From a virus (lineage: Duplodnaviria > Heunggongvirae > Uroviricota > Caudoviricetes): a stretch of 9,497 bases of DNA. Location of the stretch: the IMG/VR virus record IMGVR_UViG_2671180636_000009, one strand, 5' to 3'. The position numbers and the translations under genes were made by a program. How positions within the stretch are numbered: position 1 is the first letter of the stretch; each line of letters starts with the position of its first letter. Below the pieces are notes generated by a model. It had not been told where the DNA came from and did not search any database. It saw nothing but the letters and a program-made list of their open reading frames with translations. Positions 1 through 9,497 of the stretch are shown piece by piece.

Positions 1-31
1 TACACTAAATCAGTAAGTTGGCAGCATCACC
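1..31 (-). mobile_element. IS1 insertion sequence, terminal inverted-repeat end only (element body lies beyond the window start)
   Basis: Bases 1-31 (TACACTAAATCAGTAAGTTGGCAGCATCACC) match, from memory, the reverse complement of the IS1 terminus GGTGATGCTGCCAACTTACTGATTTAGTGTA that lies just upstream of insA. Composition changes abruptly at base 32. Recalled, not searched; orientation inferred from that recollection. Confidence 0.7.
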
Positions 32-350
32 AGCCTTCTTGAGGCTACCACCTGTTTTCAGGTGTCATTCAGACGTGATTTGCCCCAGATTGGGAAAGCA
101 CGCTTTTTTCTCAGCTATCGTCCTCTTATTTTGCCGTTACATTTCTTTTTGCATTCTAATGATTAATTTACAATAATAATATCGGTAATTATTGAGTAAT
201 AATAAATTAATTATTGCAAATGTAATTTAATTCCATCTTCGCGTTATATTCCAATCTTTAATCTCCGCATGGAACAAGTTGCATGCGTGACTATATTAAG
301 ACGACTTATAACCACCAAAACATTTGCTTTGCAAGCAAAAACAGTGACCA

Positions 351-379
351 TTGACTCTAAGAAAATTCCGATCTATTGT
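351..379 (+). promoter_or_regulatory. Candidate sigma70-like promoter (-35 TTGACT at 351-356, 17-bp spacer, -10 TATTGT at 374-379) upstream of the small ORF
   Basis: Hexamers read directly from the sequence. The region is AT-rich, so chance promoter-like matches are common; no experimental support. Confidence 0.2.
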
Positions 380-413
380 TAGGGTCATCAAAGTTACTTA
401 ACAGTATTCCGAA

Positions 414-515
414 ATGAAAATACAAAGCAAGCTAATTGTCTTATTAAACATTATTATTGCATTTATATTATTTGAGCTTTTAGCTCAAAAATTTGGTTTG
501 AGTACATTATTTTAA
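414..515 (+). CDS. Candidate small hydrophobic membrane peptide, 33 aa (MKIQSKLIVLLNIIIAFILFELLAQKFGLSTLF), possible moron or type I toxin-like gene
   Basis: ATG at 414, TAA at 513-515. About 16 consecutive hydrophobic residues are consistent with one transmembrane helix. A promoter-like element lies upstream and an intrinsic terminator about 150 bp downstream. No clear Shine-Dalgarno sequence precedes the ATG, and I do not recognise the peptide. Confidence 0.25.
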   Translation: MKIQSKLIVLLNIIIAFILFELLAQKFGLSTLF

Positions 516-663
516 AGCAAGATAAACAATATCGGGCACTCTAGTTTTTATAATTAACAATTAAACGTCCATAAAATGTTATTTACTTTTCTTCGCTATT
601 GTCATATCTTAATATAGTGGCTTACGCCACTCTACTTTCATCACATTTTGTACGTTTATGTAC

Positions 664-694
664 TCGCCATGAAGCTCTTTCATGGCGATTTTTT
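664..694 (+). terminator. Rho-independent terminator-like hairpin (10-bp stem 664-673 / 679-688, loop GCTCT) followed by a six-T run at 689-694
   Basis: Perfect inverted repeat TCGCCATGAA / TTCATGGCGA followed by TTTTTT, read directly. The T-run is on the plus strand, so it would stop transcripts coming from the small-ORF side before they run antisense into tfa. Confidence 0.45.
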
Positions 695-780
695 ATTCTT
701 AATCCAAGAACATACTCCCTACCTATAGCAAAATCACTTTTTTAACAAAAGAATAACGTATTTAGGTAATCATTACGAAT

Positions 781-1169
781 TTACCCTATAGGTGCTACTG
801 GCCATTCAATATCCGGTGCAGTTGATGTATCAACACGGTTCAGCAACACCCGATACTTTTTCCAAGCTTCCAGCAACAAGGTTTCTTTCTCCGTTGCGAT
901 CTCCAGATCCACAGCATCCTGAAGCGGCGCTATATGCTCACTGGCTACCTGCATCAGGCTGTTTTTTGTTTCTTCCGCCTCCCGGATCCGGAACAGTTTT
1001 TCTGCTTCCGTATCCTTCACCCAGGCTGTGCCGTTCCACTTCTGAAACTCCCCTTCCGGGGATAACCAGGTGACATTTTCCGGTAATGAGCCGAGTTCAG
1101 AAATAAATAACGCGTCGCCGGAAGCCACGTCATAAACCGTTTTACCCCGATGATCTTCAACGAGATGCC
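781..1169 (-). CDS. tfa: Tail fibre assembly protein Tfa (lambda Tfa / TfaR-TfaQ family); C-terminal ~128 aa visible, N-terminus hidden in N-run 1170-1675
   Basis: The minus-strand translation ends ...[72 protein letters not shown], with the stop codon at 781-783. This closely resembles the Tfa C-terminus of lambdoid phages (recalled). If the gene is about 190 aa, the start lies near 1350-1370 inside the N-run. Confidence 0.85.
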
Positions 1170-1675
1170 NNNNNNNNNNNNNNNNNNNNNNNNNNNNNNN
1201 NNNNNNNNNNNNNNNNNNNNNNNNNNNNNNNNNNNNNNNNNNNNNNNNNNNNNNNNNNNNNNNNNNNNNNNNNNNNNNNNNNNNNNNNNNNNNNNNNNNN
1301 NNNNNNNNNNNNNNNNNNNNNNNNNNNNNNNNNNNNNNNNNNNNNNNNNNNNNNNNNNNNNNNNNNNNNNNNNNNNNNNNNNNNNNNNNNNNNNNNNNNN
1401 NNNNNNNNNNNNNNNNNNNNNNNNNNNNNNNNNNNNNNNNNNNNNNNNNNNNNNNNNNNNNNNNNNNNNNNNNNNNNNNNNNNNNNNNNNNNNNNNNNNN
1501 NNNNNNNNNNNNNNNNNNNNNNNNNNNNNNNNNNNNNNNNNNNNNNNNNNNNNNNNNNNNNNNNNNNNNNNNNNNNNNNNNNNNNNNNNNNNNNNNNNNN
1601 NNNNNNNNNNNNNNNNNNNNNNNNNNNNNNNNNNNNNNNNNNNNNNNNNNNNNNNNNNNNNNNNNNNNNNNNNNN

Positions 1676-2181
1676 GCCACTGGTTAATGAGCCACTGATA
1701 CCAACCTGATTAGTCCCGCTAACTTGAGTACTCCCTGCCGGAAACATTCCAGTAGGTTGACTCCCGCTATTCGTTCTGGGCCCAGTCTGACTATGTTGGT
1801 GGGCCCCAGCTGAACTTGTAGAGCCGCTCAGACTGTGCGTATGCGCCCCGGTGTTATTCGTGGATTTAGTGCCGTAATCAAACGACGATGTGGTTTTCGT
1901 CCCCAAATCCGTACTGGATGCGCTGGCGCTGTGGGTGTGCGATTTAATGCCATCCTGTTCCTGAGACAATACGGCACGACCACTGGCGGGCTTGCCCTTA
2001 ATCGTCCAGCCACGCATATCAGGGATCACGCCTGACGGATAAGCGGCTGCAAGTTTCGGGTAAGCAGATTTGTCAAAAGTCTGCCCCTGCATCAGGGCAT
2101 AACCAGACGGAACGGTATCTGATGGCCACGGGATTGGTGCACCGACTGGATAAAACTCTGCAGGAGGATGAGCCGAGGTGT
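1676..2181 (-). CDS. stf: Side tail fibre distal segment (lambda Stf C-terminal-like, with HxH motifs); both ends run into N-runs
   Basis: The translation ([78 protein letters not shown]...[14 protein letters not shown]...) is nearly collinear with the recalled lambda Stf distal region. Its frame differs from that of the stf segment at 2295-4544, so it is either the continuation of one long stf or a separate orf314-like gene starting inside N-run 2182-2294. Confidence 0.8.
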
Positions 2182-2294
2182 NNNNNNNNNNNNNNNNNNN
2201 NNNNNNNNNNNNNNNNNNNNNNNNNNNNNNNNNNNNNNNNNNNNNNNNNNNNNNNNNNNNNNNNNNNNNNNNNNNNNNNNNNNNNNNNNNNNNN

Positions 2295-4544
2295 CCAGCC
2301 GATGAGTAACTCACCTTCGCCAACGGCTGTCATCCCTTTNNNNNNNNNNNNNNNNNNNNNNNNNNNNNNNNNNNNNNNNNNNNNNNNNNNNNNNNNNNNN
2401 NNNNNNNNNNNNNNNNNNNNNNNNNNNNNNNNNNNNNNNNNNNNNNNNNNNNNNNNNNNNNNNNNNNNNNNNNNNNNNNNNNNNNNNNNNNNNNNNNNNN
2501 NNNNNNNNNNNNNNNNNNNNNNNNNNNNNNNNNNGCCAGGTGAATAATCTGTTCCGTGATTAATATAGGTAAACTGGGCGTTGGTTGTTCCGCCACCGCT
2601 GGATGTGGTCGGAGTGGTAATGCGGATCGTCATCGCTGACTTTATCCCCATTACTTCAATGACAGCTCCGGCGAGATGAATATTACCGCAGCCAGTATCA
2701 GTAATGATTTTATTATTGCCATAAGACCAGGAACCCTTGCACATCCAGTATGGATGGTTAAATGCTCCCTGAGAATCCAGCCACTCGATAAACTGTGCAG
2801 TCGTCCAGTTTCCTGTTGTTGTGCTTACTGACCCACCGAAGGCACGGCAGGCACCAATATTTTTCGTAAAGGTGTCTTTGCCAGGGATATCCGCACCGTT
2901 CTGATCTTTCTGCAGACGTTTCTCAGCATTGTCATTGGCTGCTTTTACTGCCTTTGGCGTTGCCGCCAGCGTTTCAGACGTGCTGTTGGTCGCGCTGCTT
3001 AGCTGGATTATCCCTTTCTGTGCTGTCGTTGCATCCTGTGCGGTGTATTTCCCGTTAGCCAGGTCATACGCGGCCTTAACGGCTTTTGGTGTTGCCGCCA
3101 GTGACTCGGAAGTGCTGTTAGTCGCACTACTGAGCTGTACTATCCCCTTTTTCGTCGTGCTCGCATCCTCAAGCGCCACGGCGGATGCAATATCCTCTGC
3201 CCGTTTTGCCGCTGTCTCAGCGCGCGTTGCTGCAGATTCCGCCGTACTTTTGCTCTGAGCTGCTGCCGTCGCACTACCAGCAGCCTCTGTCGCCTTCGTG
3301 GATGCCGTCGTGGCGCTGCCCTTCGCTGCTGACGCCTGTCTGGTCGCCTCATCTTTTGAAGCAGACGCCGATGATGCCGATGACGCCGCCGAACTGGCGG
3401 ACGATGCGGCAGCCGTTTTTGAGGATTCTGCACGGGTTTCCGACGCTTTCGCGTTCGTTTCGGATGTCTTCGCTGCGGAAGCTGACCTCGCTGCTGCCGT
3501 GGCCTGCTCAGTGGCTTCGCCAGCCTTCGTTGTGGCTGTTGAAGCGGATGATGCGGCGCTTTCTGCCGATTTTCCGGCGGCGGTGGCACTGGCTGAGGCC
3601 TGCCCGGCACTTGTTGACGCGGCGCTGGCAGACGACGCAGCCGCTGTTTTTGAGCCTGCCGCAGCTGAGGCACTCTGTCCCGCTGCCGTTTCAGAAGACC
3701 TGGCGTTCGTCTCGGACGTTTTGGCCGCCTTCGCAGAATTTGCAGCCGCCGTCGCCGAGGAAGCTGCGCTACTGGCGCTTGATGATGCGTTCGTTTCTGA
3801 TGATTTTGCCGCCTCTTTTGAAGCCGACGCATCCCGGGCTGAGGTGGCAGCTTCTGACGCTTTCGTGGTCGCGGTGGATGCAGAAGTGGCTGCTGATTGT
3901 TGTGACGCTGCCGCATTCGTTTCTAACGTTTTCGCCGCACCGGCACTGGTAGCCGCCGCGCTTTTTGAGGACTCTGCAGCGGCAGCACTTTTTGAGGCTT
4001 CAGTGGCCTTTGTTGATGCCGTTCCTGCGCTGGAAGACGCTGACTGAGCCGACGAAGCGGCCTGTCCGGCTGACGTGCTGGCTGCACGTGCTGAATCTGC
4101 AGCATCAGTCGCATGGGTTGCCGCCTCACGGGCTGATGTGCTGGCATCGCTGGCTGATTTCTTCGCGGCTGCCGTGTTCTGTGCCACCGCGGACGCGTTA
4201 CGCGCCACCTCTTCCACCATCAGCTCAAAACGGCGCAGTGCCTCCGGACGGGCATCATCCTCCGTCATGGCACCGAGAAAATCATTCAGCGTACCGGGTC
4301 GGGAATCTTCATACACGGTGATGGTCCCGGCATGTGACGGCGGGAATCCTTCCACCAACAGAATAACGCTGTACTGACCGTACTCAACGTCCATGCTGTA
4401 ACGCCCGGCTTCATCCGGATTTTCTGAGGCCAGCGTGTTCACCACCACCGTGGTGCTGTTACGTTTTGCTTTCAGCTGGATTGTGCAGTTCTGTACCGGT
4501 TTTCCTGTGCCGTCTTTCAGTACACCTGAAATCTTTACTGCCAT
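2295..4544 (-). CDS. stf: Side tail fibre protein Stf, N-terminal and central part (lambda Stf / StfR family); 3' end unresolved because of N-runs 2182-2294 and 2340-2534
   Basis: ATG at 4542-4544 gives MAVKISGVLKDGTGKPVQNCTIQLKA..., the conserved lambda-type Stf N-terminus (an in-frame GTG lies at 4548-4550). An Ala/Ser/Thr-rich central region and two tandem 44-aa KGIxQLSSATNSTSExLAATPKAVK repeats follow. The short visible piece 2295-2339 is open only in this same frame. Confidence 0.88.
2929..3150 (-). repeat. Two tandem in-frame coding repeats (~132 bp / 44 aa) inside stf encoding the phage tail-fibre repeat motif
   Basis: Units at about 2929-3013 and 3061-3145 are near-identical in DNA and encode GIVQLSSATNSTSESLAATPKAVKAA and GIIQLSSATNSTSETLAATPKAVKAA. 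Confidence 0.6.
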
Positions 4545-4555
4545 ATTCACCCCAC

Positions 4556-4581
4556 AAAAAAGCCCGCCTGAACCGGCGGGC
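4556..4581 (-). terminator. Rho-independent terminator-like hairpin between lom and stf (minus-strand sense: GCCCGCC-GGTTCA-GGCGGGC followed by TTTTTT)
   Basis: Perfect 7-bp GC-rich stem at plus 4562-4568 / 4575-4581, with the A-run 4556-4561 on the plus strand (a T-run on the minus strand). It sits 45 bp downstream of the lom stop and about 12 bp upstream of the stf ATG. Confidence 0.45.
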
Positions 4582-4608
4582 TGTCATAACACTGTGTTAC
4601 CTGGCTAA

Positions 4609-5208
4609 TCAGAATTTATAACCGACACCCACGATGAAACCGTCAGTGCGCCAGTCACCACTGCCGGAACCTTCATAAGCAAGGTCAATGGCCACGGATT
4701 CGGTCGGGTTAAACTGCACGCCAGCCCCCCACGCCAGAGACGTGTTGCTGTGGCGACCGCCATCACTTCCGGTCAGCACATCGTGCGTTTTCCCCTTATT
4801 GTCAGTTACGCGGATATAATCCCCGGAAAAAGTCGACACACGGCTGTAAGCCACACCCGCCATCGCATACGCGCTGAACCATTCATTCACGCGCACAGAC
4901 GGCCCCGCCATCACGCTGAACCAGCGGTTACGCACGGAATCCTCATGCCAGCGGGTATCGCTGTAATGCGTTTTTTGCTCATCTTCAGCGTTGGCATAAC
5001 TGAATGACGTAATCAGCCCCAGCGTGTCCGTAAACTCATAACGGTATTTCACGTTAATGCCCTTCAGGTCATCACTGCCGGGAACGTTGGTCCGGGCATG
5101 AAGATACCCCGCGCTCAGCGTGGACTGATGTTCAGACGCCCATGCAGGCGCACCGGATACGGCCAGGCAAATGGCTGCGGACAAAATGGCTGCACAAACT
5201 TTACGCAT
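4609..5208 (-). CDS. lom: Lom outer-membrane protein (Ail/Lom/OmpX family beta-barrel), 199 aa, with N-terminal signal peptide
   Basis: ATG at 5206-5208 preceded by GAGAGG; stop TGA at 4609-4611. The translation (MRKVCAAILSAAICLAVSGAPAWASEHQSTLSAGYLHARTNVPGSDDLKGINVKYRYEF...GFIVGVGYKF) is essentially the phage lambda Lom sequence as I recall it, and the terminal aromatic residue is typical of outer-membrane beta-barrels. Confidence 0.95.
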   Translation of the reverse strand: MRKVCAAILSAAICLAVSGAPAWASEHQSTLSAGYLHARTNVPGSDDLKGINVKYRYEFTDTLGLITSFSYANAEDEQKTHYSDTRWHEDSVRNRWFSVMAGPSVRVNEWFSAYAMAGVAYSRVSTFSGDYIRVTDNKGKTHDVLTGSDGGRHSNTSLAWGAGVQFNPTESVAIDLAYEGSGSGDWRTDGFIVGVGYKF

Positions 5209-5405
5209 AATTACCTCTCGCTTTTCTGCAATAAAAAAGNNNNNNNNNNNNNNNNNNNNNNNNNNNNNNNNNNNNNNNNNNNNNNNNNNNNNNNNNNNNN
5301 NNNNNNNNNNNNNNNNNNNNNNNNNNNNNNNNNNNNNNNNNNNNNNNNNNNNNNNNNNNNNNNNNNNNNNNNNNNNNNNNNNNNNNNNNNNNNNNNNNNN
5401 NNNNN

Positions 5406-8400
5406 CCTGCCCCCTGATTGCCTTTCTGGAAAATCTTAAACTCCAGAGTGACGCTACCACCACCACTAGGCATATCAATAACANNNNNNNNNNNNNNNNN
5501 NNNNNNNNNNNNNNNNNNNNNNNNNNNNNNNNNNNNNNNNNNNNNNNNNNNNNNNNNNNNNNNNNNNNNNNNNNNNNNNNNNNNNNNNNNNNNNNNNNNN
5601 NNNNNNNNNNNNNNNNNNNNNNNNNNNNNNNNNNNNNNNNNNNNNNNNNNNNNNNNNNNNNNNNNNNNNNNNNNNNNNNNNNNNNNNNNNNNNNNNNNNN
5701 NNNNNNNNNNNNNNNNNNNNNNNNNNNNNNNNNNNTCCCGTGGGAAAGGTTTGCCCACTGTTTTAACGAGATCGCCTTCAATCTGGTTCGCGGACAATTT
5801 TCCCAGAACNNNNNNNNNNNNNNNNNNNNNNNNNNNNNNNNNNNNNNNNNNNNNNNNNNNNNNNNNNNNNNNNNNNNNNNNNNNNNNNNNNNNNNNNNNN
5901 NNNNNNNNNNNNNNNNNNNNNNNNNNNNNNNNNNNNNNNNNNNNNNNNNNNNNNNNNNNNNNNNNNNNNNNNNNNNNNNNNNNNNNNNNNNNNNNNNNNN
6001 NNNNNNNNNNNNNNNNNNNNNNNNNNNNNNNNNNNNNNNNNNNNNNNNNNNNNNNNNNNATAATGGGCGGAATAATAATCTGGCGGTCAAAGTTATGATC
6101 ATCGCTTATGGTGACTGTAACCGTCCCGTTTGGTGTTTCCGTGTTACCCCACGTACCAGCCTGTTTCGGAAATGATTTGGATACAGCTTTAACGNNNNNN
6201 NNNNNNNNNNNNNNNNNNNNNNNNNNNNNNNNNNNNNNNNNNNNNNNNNNNNNNNNNNNNNNNNNNNNNNNNNNNNNNNNNNNNNNNNNNNNNNNNNNNN
6301 NNNNNNNNNNNNNNNNNNNNCTGTTTCGGAAATGATTTGGATACAGCTTTAACGAAGTCACCTCTGACCTGAGTCGCCTCCAGCATGCCCTTAATCGTAC
6401 AGTTTTCATTTACCGTGACATTGTTGAGCGTCCCGGCGTTCGCATTCACACTGCCACTGATATCCGCATTTTTAGCGGTCAGCTTTCCGTCCGGAGTCAG
6501 GGAAAATGCCGATGGATTTCCACCGCTGGTAATGGTGGGGGCCGTCAGGCGTTTCAGGAACACGTCGTTCATGAATATCTGATCGCCCTGACCAACAAAC
6601 ATCGGTTTTGTGTTGCCATTCGCAGGATTAACCATCGCAATCCTGTCCGCCGCCAGCAGCACCTGACTCTGCATGCCGTCAGGGGTGTTCTCAATACCGG
6701 CACCAATACCCGCGATATAAAGGCGTCCGTCCTGCATCTGCTGCAGCTTCACAGCCCACATGCTGTTCAGGTTATTATTTGTATCAACCTGAACCTTCTG
6801 TATCTGCTGAATTGCCGCACTCTGGTCTTCCAGTTTCTTATTGACGGTCTGCGTGATTTCATTGCTGACATCCGTAATGGACGTCCTGATTTCAGCCAGG
6901 TCAGGCGCAAGCTGACCGTTATCAATCTGCGTCCACAGCTCCTGAGCCAGATGGGTTTTCCCTATCTCGCCTTTGAAAAAATCCAGATAACCGGATGCAT
7001 CATCACTCGGCTGACCAACAGCCTCCACGAATGCCGATTTGCCAACGGTGTTCACACTGCGGATATAAAAGTAATAATCATGGCCCGGTTTGATATTGAT
7101 ACTGGCGGCTATCCAGTACAGCGCCGTGCCAAGATAGCGTGCTGTGGTTTCAACCTGCCTGATATCCGCAATCCGCTTTTCCGAGAACCAGAACTCAAAC
7201 TGTACCGTCGGATCATAAACCGCAAGATGCGGCGTGGCGGTTATCTGAAAATAGCCCGGCGTCAGCTCAATCCGCGACAGCGCTGCCGGTGCGGCAATCC
7301 GGAACGATACCGACGCCGGATCGCCCTGCTGCCCCCACGCATTTACTGCCCGGACTGTCAGCCTGTAGTTCCCCAGCGCCAGTTGTGTGAAGCGGTAAGT
7401 GGTTTCCGTCGTCCGNNNNNNNNNNNNNNNNNNNNNNNNCCAGCCGCTCACTGCCGTCATCCGCTGTTACGGTCAGACGGAGCAGGAAGCTCACGCCCTT
7501 CACCACCTTCGGCGTGTCCCAGCGCGCCAGCACCTGATATTCCCCGCTGTCTGCGGTGACTTCGGCGGTCAGATGCTGCACCGCTGGCGGCGTGACACCA
7601 TTCACCGTGCCGCTCTGGTCGCCGTCAAAGTGCGCCCCGTTATCCACGATGGCTTCTTTTTCCGGCACATGCTGCACGGCGGTGATGGCATACGTGCCGT
7701 CGTCGTTCTCACGGATACTCACGCAGCGGAACAGACGCTGGCGCAGCGTCGGCAGCTTCAGCCCCCACACGCTGTATTCTGCAACGCCGTCAGGAACACG
7801 GCTCACTTTTACCTTCACGCCGTCGGTGACGGACTGGACCTCCACGCTGACCGGATTNNNNNNNNNNNNNNNNNNNNNNNNNNNNNNNNNNNNNNNNNNN
7901 NNNNNNNNNNNNNNNNNNNNNNNNNNNNNNNNNNNNNNNNNNNNNNNNNNNNNNNNNNNNNNNNNNNNNNNNNNNNNNNNNNNNNNNNNNNNNNNNNNNN
8001 NNNNNNNNNNNNNNNNNNNNNNNNNNNNNNNNNNNNNNNNNNNNNNNNNNNNNNNNCCGCCAGTACGCGACCACCGGTGCTGATACCGGNNNNNNNNNNN
8101 NNNNNNNNNNNNNNNNNNNNNNNNNNNNNNNNNNNNNNNNNNNNNNNNNNNNNNNNNNNNNNNNNNNNNNNNNNNNNNNNNNNNNNNNNNNNNNNNNNNN
8201 NNNNNNNNNNNNNNNNNNNNNNNNNNNNNNNNNNNNNNNNNNNNNNNNNNNNNNNNNNNNNNNNNNNNNNNNNNNNNNNNNNNNNNNNNNNNNNNNNNNN
8301 NNNNNNNNNNNNNNNNNNNNNNNNNNNNNNNNNNNNNNNNNNNNNNNNNNNNNNNNNNNNNNNNNNNNNNNNNNNNNNNNNNNNNNNNNNNNNNNNNNNN

Positions 8401-9497
8401 NNNNNNNNNNNNNNNNNNNNNNNNNNNNNNNNNNNNNNNNNNNNNNNNNNNNNNNNNNNNNNNNNNNNNNNNNNNNNNNNNNNNNNNNNNNNNNNNNNNN
8501 NNNNNNNNNNNNNNNNNNNNNNNNNNNNNNNNNNNNNNNNNNNNNNNNNNNNNNNNNNNNNNNNNNNNNNNNNNNNNNNNNNNNNNNNNNNNNNNNNNNN
8601 NNNNNNNNNNNNNNNNNNNNNNNNNNNNNNNNNNNNNNNNNNNNNNNNNNNNNNNNNNNGTTCCATACCGGCATACAGCGCATCGCCGAGCAGAAATCAC
8701 TGAGCACATCCCACGCCTTGCGCTGTGTGGTCAGCCAGGCATTACAGGTGATGCGCGGCTCCGTGCTGCCAAAGCCGTCCGGCACCGACTGGTCACAGTA
8801 CTGGCCGATGACATACAGCGCATCGCCGAGCAGAAATCACTGAGAACATCCCACGCCTTACGCTGTGTGGTCAGGTAAGAGTTACAGGTGATGCGCGGCT
8901 CCGTGCCGCCAAATCCGTCCGTCACTGACTGGTCGCAGTACTGGCCGATGACATACAGCGCCCATTTGTCCACATCTGCCGCACCAAGACGTTTCCCCAT
9001 GCCGTAGCGCGGATGAGTGAGCATGTCCCACAGACACCAGGCCATGTTGTTGCTGTATGCTGGCTTAAGCGTTCCGTCCCAGATACCGCTGTATTGCCGC
9101 GTCTGCGGATTATAGTTCGACGGCACCTGCAGAATGCGCCCGCGAAGATGATAATTGCGACTCACCTGCTGGTTACCGAACTGCTCTGAATCCACCTGCA
9201 CGCCGACCAGCGCCGTGTTCGGGTAGCACTGTTTCNNNNNNNNNNNNNNNNNNNNNNNNNNNNNNNNNNNNNNNNNNNNNNNNNNNNNNNNNNNNNNNNN
9301 NNNNNNNNNNNNNNNNNNNNNNNNNNNNNNNNNNNNNNNNNNNNNNNNNNNNNNNNNNNNNNNNNNNNNNNNNNNCACCTGCAGAATGCGCCCGCGAAGA
9401 TGATAATTACGGCTCACCTGCTGGCTGCCGAACTGCTCCGAATCCACCTGTACGCCGACCAGTGCCGTGTTCGGGTAGCACTGTTTCACATCGATGA
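5406..9497 (-). CDS. J: Tail tip / host specificity protein J (lambda gpJ family), partial: 5' end beyond the window, 3' end inside N-run 5240-5405; reading frame not continuous as given (possible pseudogene or assembly artefact)
   Basis: Visible minus-strand segments read [20 protein letters not shown]..., [15 protein letters not shown]...[69 protein letters not shown]..., [30 protein letters not shown]...[21 protein letters not shown]... and [11 protein letters not shown].... All are collinear with recalled lambda J from about residue 210 to the C-terminal region. The segments fall in different frames across the N-runs and across a 140-bp tandem duplication. Confidence 0.85.
6161..6354. repeat. 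Exact 34-bp direct repeat (6161-6194 and 6321-6354) flanking the 126-nt N-run inside J
   Basis: CTGTTTCGGAAATGATTTGGATACAGCTTTAACG occurs identically on both sides of N-run 6195-6320. It encodes [11 protein letters not shown] of J; the 160-bp period is not a multiple of 3. Confidence 0.8.
8673..8952. repeat. Tandem direct duplication, 2 x 140 bp, with about 12 mismatches (~91% identity), inside J
   Basis: 8673-8812 and 8813-8952 align base for base with 12 differences by hand count, with no N between them. Each copy encodes the J segment ...DGFG(S/G)TEPRITCN(AW/SY)[21 protein letters not shown] in its own frame; 140 is not a multiple of 3, so the J frame is broken at the junction. Confidence 0.8.
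9124..9487. repeat. Direct repeat of about 112 bp (9124-9235 and 9376-9487, 7 mismatches) flanking the 140-nt N-run; period 252 bp, in frame
   Basis: Both copies encode the J segment [20 protein letters not shown](N/S)[16 protein letters not shown]. Lambda J has this segment once, as I recall it. Confidence 0.75.

Follow-up and report, generated by a model that had tools for sequence, protein, structure and literature searches.

A probable conserved internal domain, shared with the fibres of P2, Mu and P1, in the mosaic side tail fibre of a lambdoid prophage

The side tail fibre gene (stf) of the prophage analysed here contains a segment foreign to lambda, and this segment probably makes up most of a globular domain that is conserved and lies in the interior of the presumably trimeric fibre. 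The structure of the domain has been solved in the Mu fibre (PDB entry 8JU3); with a second domain (referred to below as the knob) it builds a cassette about 240 aa long. The case is one of ordinary tail-fibre mosaicism and as such already known: sequenced phages and complete genomes with annotation already contain DNA identical to the segment, and the domain structure is solved. Published accounts of tail-fibre mosaicism across lambdoid, P2, Mu, P1 and T-even phages go back to 1989-1994. The present analysis gives, for a common E. coli Stf type, the precise position of the module joints, after NGADIP (2884) and before 2152, and it locates the hypervariable element in the insert at the tip, between the HxH repeats, which helps the prediction of prophage host range and the engineering of chimeric side fibres.

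The stf gene and the layout of its product

The window, i.e., the whole stretch of 9,497 nt that was analysed, carries the tail genes J, lom, stf and tfa of a lambdoid prophage on its minus strand, as judged from the open reading frames and annotated relatives, and this order is also that annotated in loci that are 97-99% identical. The phage_tail_N domain, the gene order J-lom-stf-tfa and the C-terminal collar with HxH needle identify a Stf and Tfa pair of the lambda type. The stf gene is broken by N-runs at 2182-2294 and 2340-2534, the lengths of which differ from the real sequence, and its 3' end and stop codon are masked by a further run at 1170-1675; readable are the pieces 2535-4544, 2295-2339 and 1676-2181. 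The stretch 2535-5239 is unmasked and contiguous, and its 2705 nt are 96.6-97.2% identical in DNA to the complete genomes L001 and L004, in which stf is annotated. The best full-length proxy for the gene product is the 983-aa protein WP_338933567.1 of the complete genome L011, 98.7% identical across all visible pieces, and Stf proteins of the StfQ type are about 983-1007 aa long in the proxies. The features of the region are the following.

1676..4544, minus strand: stf, visible part, with its ATG at 4544 (MAVKISG...), from the open reading frame list and the sequence
4143..4544, minus strand: N-terminal tail-attachment domain, aa 1-134 (Pfam PF08400, phage_tail_N, E 1.4e-71)
3153..4142, minus strand: Ala/Ser/Thr-rich repetitive shaft of the lambda/Rac type, aa 135-464 (DNA identity 95.3% to stfR, 87.2% to lambda)
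2901..3152, minus strand: two Phage_fiber_2 repeats (KKGIVQLSSATNSTSE.LAATPKAVK), aa 465-548 (PF03406, E 3.1e-37, in two stretches)
2850..2900, minus strand: joint or linker NGADIPGKDTFTKNIGA, aa 549-565; the NGADIP codons are the last to be shared with stfR, the homology to which ends at 2884
2535..2849, minus strand: unmasked portion (aa 566-670) of the Cys domain, a domain of the kind present in P2 gpH, Mu S' and P1 S'
2153..2534, minus strand: knob, the second non-lambda domain, about aa 686-792 in the proxies, mostly masked
1824..2152, minus strand: collar and ascending HxH needle strands (Pfam Collar, PF07484, and Phage_fiber, PF03335)
1676..1823, minus strand: start of the hypervariable tip insert between HxH repeats, matched only by L003 and L011 and not by L001, L002 or L004
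781..1169, minus strand: tfa (tail fibre assembly), visible 3' part, from its translation; the 5' end is masked

The N-terminal domain matches residues 1-94 of PDB entry 9e7m, a 'Tail fiber protein', with an E value of 1.3e-51, while the Ala/Ser/Thr-rich shaft (aa 135-464) is without any Pfam family. The second Phage_fiber_2 repeat terminates in the linker NDNAEKRLQKDQ. At the other end of the fibre, the collar and HxH strands (1824..2152), which are common to lambda Stf, StfR, StfQ and T4 gp37, match residues 28-148 of 2XGF_A (E 3.6e-60) and show DNA identities of 95.2% to stfR and 80.7% to lambda. The T4 gp37 structure 2XGF was matched with an E value of 2.8e-87 by the full proxy and of 1.4e-60 by the window's own distal piece, 1676-2181, the alignment of the window ending after residue 148, where the head of T4 gp37 starts. 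Annotated tfa/tfaQ genes and the tfa of lambda match the visible tfa piece at 93-99.7% DNA identity.

Boundaries and relatives of the non-lambda cassette

Positions 2535-2900 translate, on the minus strand, exactly into the peptide quoted in the sequence-only reading, a stretch of 122 aa that, with the ATG at 4544 as the first codon, covers Stf residues 549-670, and the view that this stretch is foreign to lambda was upheld by BLASTP, in which neither lambda orf-401/orf-314 nor K-12 StfR showed a counterpart. Several Trp residues had been noted, and 4 are present; four Cys had been counted, of which we find 3 (aa 566, 602 and 619). The size of about 120 aa given to the foreign part turned out to describe its visible half only, as the whole non-lambda block in unmasked relatives comprises about 240 aa, from 2883 to 2153. 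Likewise, the segment does lie upstream of the lambda-like HxH part (1676-2181), but it does not abut it, since a knob of about 105 aa intervenes. The block is made up of two domains, the Cys domain at about aa 566-685 (limits set by alignment) and the knob at about aa 686-792. The last approximately 15 aa of the Cys domain (WRRDYNSRNKP...) are masked by the N-run 2340-2534, and the letters of the knob can be read only at 2295-2339 (KGMTAVGEGELLIGW) and 2153-2181 (TSAHPPAEF); for the knob and the masked end of the Cys domain, the description given here follows relatives that are 97-99% identical, the knob region of L004 and L011 reading GRVTALTDNTQGATGLELYEVYNNGYP...ANWSPWAQLYTS.

The description of the block as a swapped or inserted module of a mosaic gene agrees with its sharp boundaries against both lambda Stf and StfR: the DNA homology to stfR (95.3% upstream) stops at 2884 and restarts at 2152, and that to lambda stops at 2944 and restarts at 2143. 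Lambda Stf and StfR are like the window's fibre in their N-terminal attachment part, Ala/Ser-rich shaft, Phage_fiber_2 repeat, collar, HxH needle and Tfa partner, whereas their central cassettes differ: lambda has a helical piece of the DALNTLNELAAALGNDP type, StfR has, between the same two flanks, a cassette of 393 aa with a Gp34_trimer match, and in the window the place is taken by the Cys domain plus the knob. By alignment, the position of the cassette is thus occupied in lambda Stf and in Rac StfR by other cassettes, between two conserved joints, of which the upstream one reads ...KDQNGADIP. The possibility raised at the outset, that the segment is a routine part of Stf homologues such as StfR, holds by half: it is absent from StfR, and a boundary exists, yet it is routine in fibres of the StfQ type.

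Residues 178-334 of the Mu fibre protein S' (8JU3_A) align to the segment with an E value of 3.6e-70 (phmmer, PDB), and the segment has the same fold as the domain of P2 gpH, Mu S' and P1 S' represented by 8JU3; the predicted structure is that of a monomer of a fibre inferred from its family to be trimeric, and its first 40 residues are of low confidence. In tblastn searches of phage genomes, the first approximately 140 aa of the block were 79-86% identical to gpH of P2 and P2-like phages and 70-72% identical to S' of Mu, D108 and SfMu; P1 Sv' was 73% identical over the whole 252-aa block at 95% coverage, and the last approximately 125 aa were found in P1 Sv/Sv', in Fels-1 and Goslar and in many fibres of Vibrio phages. 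No functional experiment or paper on the Cys domain was found in the literature searched, in which 8JU3 was cited by one paper, in a figure legend.

The three best-characterised relatives each resemble the window's fibre in part. In P2 gpH, the Phage_fiber_2 repeats, the linker NAEKRLQKDQNGADIP and the Cys domain are collinear with those of the window, 674 nt being 77.6% identical in DNA; unlike the window's fibre, gpH has a different N-terminal part for attachment to the baseplate, and after WRRDYN it diverges into a knob and tip of the Mu S' type, whereas the window's fibre continues into a P1-type knob and a gp37-type needle. In phage Mu, S' (gp52, the G(-) fibre, 8JU3) belongs to a myovirus fibre and its domain forms the first part of the invertible segment; the knob that comes next and the small C-terminal tip, which requires U', both differ from the P1-type knob and gp37-type tip of the window. 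The window, moreover, encodes a siphovirus side fibre and, unlike Mu, is without invertase, gix-like site or inverted repeats. P1 S' (Sv', of the C segment) has both domains, the knob at aa 47-153 (64% identical) and the Cys domain at aa 168-358 (66%), but in reversed order, knob first and Cys domain second, with TATKL.TAR.INGV.FDGS repeats between them; both lie inside the invertible segment, and the tip differs from that of the window. The C-terminal ends of P2 gpH, Mu S' and P1 S' are also related, so that these three alone are no proof of independence of the domain from the tip.

The Cys domain is without a Pfam model, the sub-threshold match to Gp34_trimer touching only the end of the domain. 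Membership in that family (PF21446) was rejected, as the domain end plus linker scored 15.2-24.3 bits in six proteins, below the gathering threshold of 27 bits; the different cassette of StfR does pass, at 95.7 bits (full match E 3.4e-27). With all curated thresholds missed, the likeness to the C-terminal region of T4 gp34 (4UXG/5NXH; PF21446) would amount at most to a distant relationship of fibre-shaft elements.

At least 15 PHROG tail-fibre families, some of them annotated as long-fibre distal and proximal subunits, contain the Cys domain at internal positions, and the PHROG hits of the knob also fall at internal tail-fibre positions. Among 32 aligned homologues, the neighbours of the Cys domain differ widely, both upstream and downstream; as the homologue search gave almost solely short partial proteins, this rests on the 32-sequence alignment and is no census of full-length architectures. 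Cys619, in the motif TGCG, is near-invariant (31 of 32 homologues), Cys602 is present in 24 of the 32, an alternative Cys two positions on in 9 and Cys566 in 6. In Photorhabdus, the Cys domain is duplicated in tandem.

The receptor-binding question

The role proposed for the segment in the sequence-only reading, that of a receptor-binding or specificity module, was not borne out: the segment belongs to a conserved internal domain, common to P2 gpH, Mu S' and P1 S', which is under purifying selection, and it is the tip that varies instead. The Cys domain is 98-100% identical among four Stf alleles; in the same four alleles and the StfQ remnant of K-12, the knob and collar are 97-100% identical and the tip insert between the HxH repeats 31-63%. 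Against P2, P1 and Mu, the Cys domain gave pS values of 0.74-0.79, at which synonymous sites are saturated, and pN values of 0.08-0.16, and its dN/dS was 0.03-0.12, or 0.05-0.12 within E. coli. Judged from these sequence comparisons, the Cys domain is under strong purifying selection and its divergence is old. The listing of its spread suggests that most of the approximately 700 records with the Cys block are without the window's tip.

In T4 gp37 and lambda Stf, it is the head, folded with Tfa, that contacts the receptor. An assignment of the segment to such a distal tip of the T4 gp37 / lambda Stf kind was rejected, as it gave no alignment to 2XGF and the gp37-like part begins about 125 aa downstream. 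By analogy, the tip insert starting at 1676..1823 is the likely receptor-contact 'head' of the window's fibre. The fibre could accordingly be imagined to work as follows: (i) the N-terminal domain, as homology shows, anchors it to the tail tip; (ii) the Ala/Ser-rich shaft and the Phage_fiber_2 repeats, as homology again shows, lengthen it; (iii) the Cys domain and the knob may act as rigid shaft nodes that keep the trimer in register and carry any recombined distal module; and (iv) the gp37-like collar, HxH needle and hypervariable head, folded with Tfa, would contact the receptor, as T4 gp37 and lambda Stf lead one to expect.

It is unlikely, in our estimation, that the Cys/Trp domain is itself a swapped receptor-binding module (binding, e.g., a glycan) that sets or adds host specificity, since its constancy among fibres with four different tips (98-100% identity), the strong purifying selection on it, its always internal position in the PHROG fibre families and the complete T4-gp37-type tip downstream of it all speak against such a role, even if several observations lend it some appeal: (i) the segment is located in that part of stf which differs between lambda, StfR and the window's fibre; (ii) in Mu and P1, the domain lies within the invertible segment that switches the host range, the match in Mu beginning about 30 nt past the border repeat of the G segment; and (iii) some side tail fibres do bind core sugars of LPS, as found for Stf of Gifsy-1 (PMC12312913).

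More doubtful still is the idea that the Cys domain is a second, low-affinity, mid-fibre site for glycan binding, with a pocket or a disulfide shaped by the near-invariant Cys of TGCG. If true, fibres of the StfQ type and those of P2, Mu G(-) and P1 C(-) would share a tip-independent affinity for a common element of the enterobacterial LPS core. The TGCG Cys is always accompanied by a Cys in the W[MI][CA][KR][GC][SA]W strand. As a separate and equally doubtful possibility, the flanking linkers may be relics of invertase crossover sites that drove the shuffling of whole domains, with which the reversed domain order of P1 S' is consistent.

Joints, origin and spread of the cassette

P2 gpH also has the joint NGADIPGKDTFTKNIGA, and so does the start of Sv' in Mu and P1. 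A homologous peptide, NGADIPNKPLFIQNLGL, closes Mu Sc and leads into the G-segment border repeat. At its other end, the Cys domain terminates in a similar linker, NKPTASEIGALP, which in Photorhabdus leads directly into the second copy of the domain. The linker peptides IP.K....N[IL]GA (upstream) and NKPT...[IV]GA (downstream) are likely, from their sequence and position, to be the sites of the homologous exchange that generated the mosaic. According to PMC3945230, which cites Haggard-Ljungquist 1992 and Sandmeier 1992/1994, the trading of tail-fibre segments between unrelated phages is of ancient date and was probably aided by fibre-associated invertases, and the pattern of flanking linkers fits this published view. 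For the window itself, a cassette switched by an invertase, of the Mu G, P1 C or e14 P type, was ruled out, as no crossover site, inverted repeats or invertase was found: there was no match to the gix/cix/hix-type site TTATCNNAAACCNNGGTTTNNGATAA in the window with up to three mismatches, no long inverted repeat in positions 1-4700 and no invertase among the open reading frames of the window. Some related loci have a pin-type recombinase downstream of tfa.

The 366-nt segment was detected in 720 of 5426 complete E. coli genomes (13%), and 697 of the 723 matching E. coli records were 95-100% identical to it. It is also present, at 97-100%, in 7 sequenced phages, including PhiR29_1 (100%) and mEp460_ev081 (97% DNA identity); those of the 7 with checked annotation are all lambdoid. 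A search of the literature for papers on the fibre receptors of PhiR29, PhiR68 and mEp460 gave none that was relevant. The stfQ remnant of the K-12 prophage Qin starts within the knob (LYEVYNNGYP...) and is 98-100% identical to the window type through the collar; everything before LYEVYNNGYP, the Cys domain included, is missing from it, and the tips are 31-63% identical. Because of this identity from knob through collar, the window's fibre is, on this comparison, an intact Stf of the StfQ type, and K-12 StfQ is a truncated remnant of the window's fibre type. Genes beside StfQ-type stf in the relatives are annotated as tfaQ.

This distribution also bears on the age of the cassette. A recent capture from a P2-, Mu- or P1-like myovirus, i.e., a fresh swap of host range, would agree with P2, Mu and P1 being the closest characterised homologues of the Cys domain, but the DNA identity to these three is just 72-78% with saturated synonymous sites, and the segment is nearly uniform in the E. 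coli records and the 7 phages, which makes such a capture highly improbable. The low identity to P2, P1 and Mu, together with the wide spread in E. coli, points to an old transfer and an established Stf type.

Least credible of all is that the mosaic is a scaffolding chimera, in which pieces of several prophage stf genes were joined over N-runs, because, although N-run lengths are untrue (353 nt in the window vs 343 nt in L003 and L004, and the 506-nt run 1170-1675 is by estimate longer than the stf end plus tfa start of L011 and L004) and several runs are flanked by diverged direct copies (e.g., 6161-6194 = 6321-6354 and 9124-9235 approximately equal to 9376-9490), the upstream junction at 2884 lies within the uninterrupted 2705 nt, the downstream junction at 2152/2153 lies within the uninterrupted piece 1676-2181, and in the complete genome L011 the order of the three visible pieces is the same, at 98.7% identity. 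A chimera is ruled out for both junctions by these unmasked flanks and the complete genomes L001, L004 and L011, and the mosaic is real, its junction being in a contiguous stretch that is matched by complete genomes. The StfR-type cassette was present in 1842 of the 5426 E. coli genomes.

The Cys domain and knob in other fibres

Both domains of the window Stf's non-lambda cassette, the Cys domain and the knob, recur in other fibres. In a partial protein from Photorhabdus temperata (P0003), two copies of the Cys domain stand in tandem, joined directly by the NKPT..DVGA linker, which shows the Cys domain to be an autonomous unit able to repeat. The phage P1 protein Sv' shares both domains with the window cassette, although in P1 their order is reversed (the knob precedes the Cys domain) and TATKL.TAR.INGV.FDGS repeats separate the two.

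L008 (phage P1 locus) 3865-5422, Sv'; knob aa 47-153, Cys domain aa 168-358

The K-12 StfQ remnant and the fibre tip

L010 (E. coli K-12 Qin prophage locus) 2444-3355, stfQ remnant; 5' start within the knob domain
Window 1676-1823 (-), tip insert between HxH repeats (gp37-like head); equivalents in L001, L002, L004, L010 and L011

Since the knob and collar of K-12 StfQ are 98-100% identical to those of the window type, and since it begins inside the knob domain (LYEVYNNGYP...), K-12 StfQ is a copy of this fibre type that has been truncated at the 5' end; in its tip insert it carries yet another variant, with 44% identity to the window type. Across the window and the five loci carrying equivalents, this gp37-like head is hypervariable: the insert shows 31-63% identity between fibres that are elsewhere 97-100% identical, and its length ranges from 51 to 71 aa. 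Among the loci examined, the window's own variant was observed only in L003 and in L011, the best full-length proxy for the window stf.

Masked stretches of the window

Window 1170-1675, 2182-2294, 2340-2534, 6195-6320 and 9236-9375, N-runs

The lengths of the N-runs are not true to the real sequence (where L003 and L004 have 343 nt, the window has 353 nt), and several are flanked on both sides by direct copies, some of them diverged (6161-6194 is the same as 6321-6354; 9124-9235 is similar to 9376-9490). Part of J is also duplicated (window ~8660-8982). Reading frames therefore shift across the masks. The pattern looks like that of a prophage region rich in repeats that has been scaffolded or masked.

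The stf-tfa interval and the stretch downstream

L001 (E. coli ST2350) 6380-8543, macro-domain-containing gene between stf and tfa

Usually, stf and tfa are adjacent or overlap; in L001, whose prophage is otherwise near-identical to that of the window, they are parted by the macro-domain-containing gene, an inserted accessory gene that is itself interrupted by an IS3 element. The window from ~203-235 to 1169 is common to L003 and L004 (95-96% identity). An Rfam IS009 (RF02111) match at 821-1019 (-), scoring 218 bits against a gathering score of 117, falls wholly within the 3' part of tfa. Downstream of tfa, an AT-rich stretch holds a 33-codon ORF at 414-515 (+), encoding the hydrophobic peptide MKIQSKLIVLLNIIIAFILFELLAQKFGLSTLF; farther along, at 664-688 (+), comes a strong hairpin that has a T-run and resembles a terminator.
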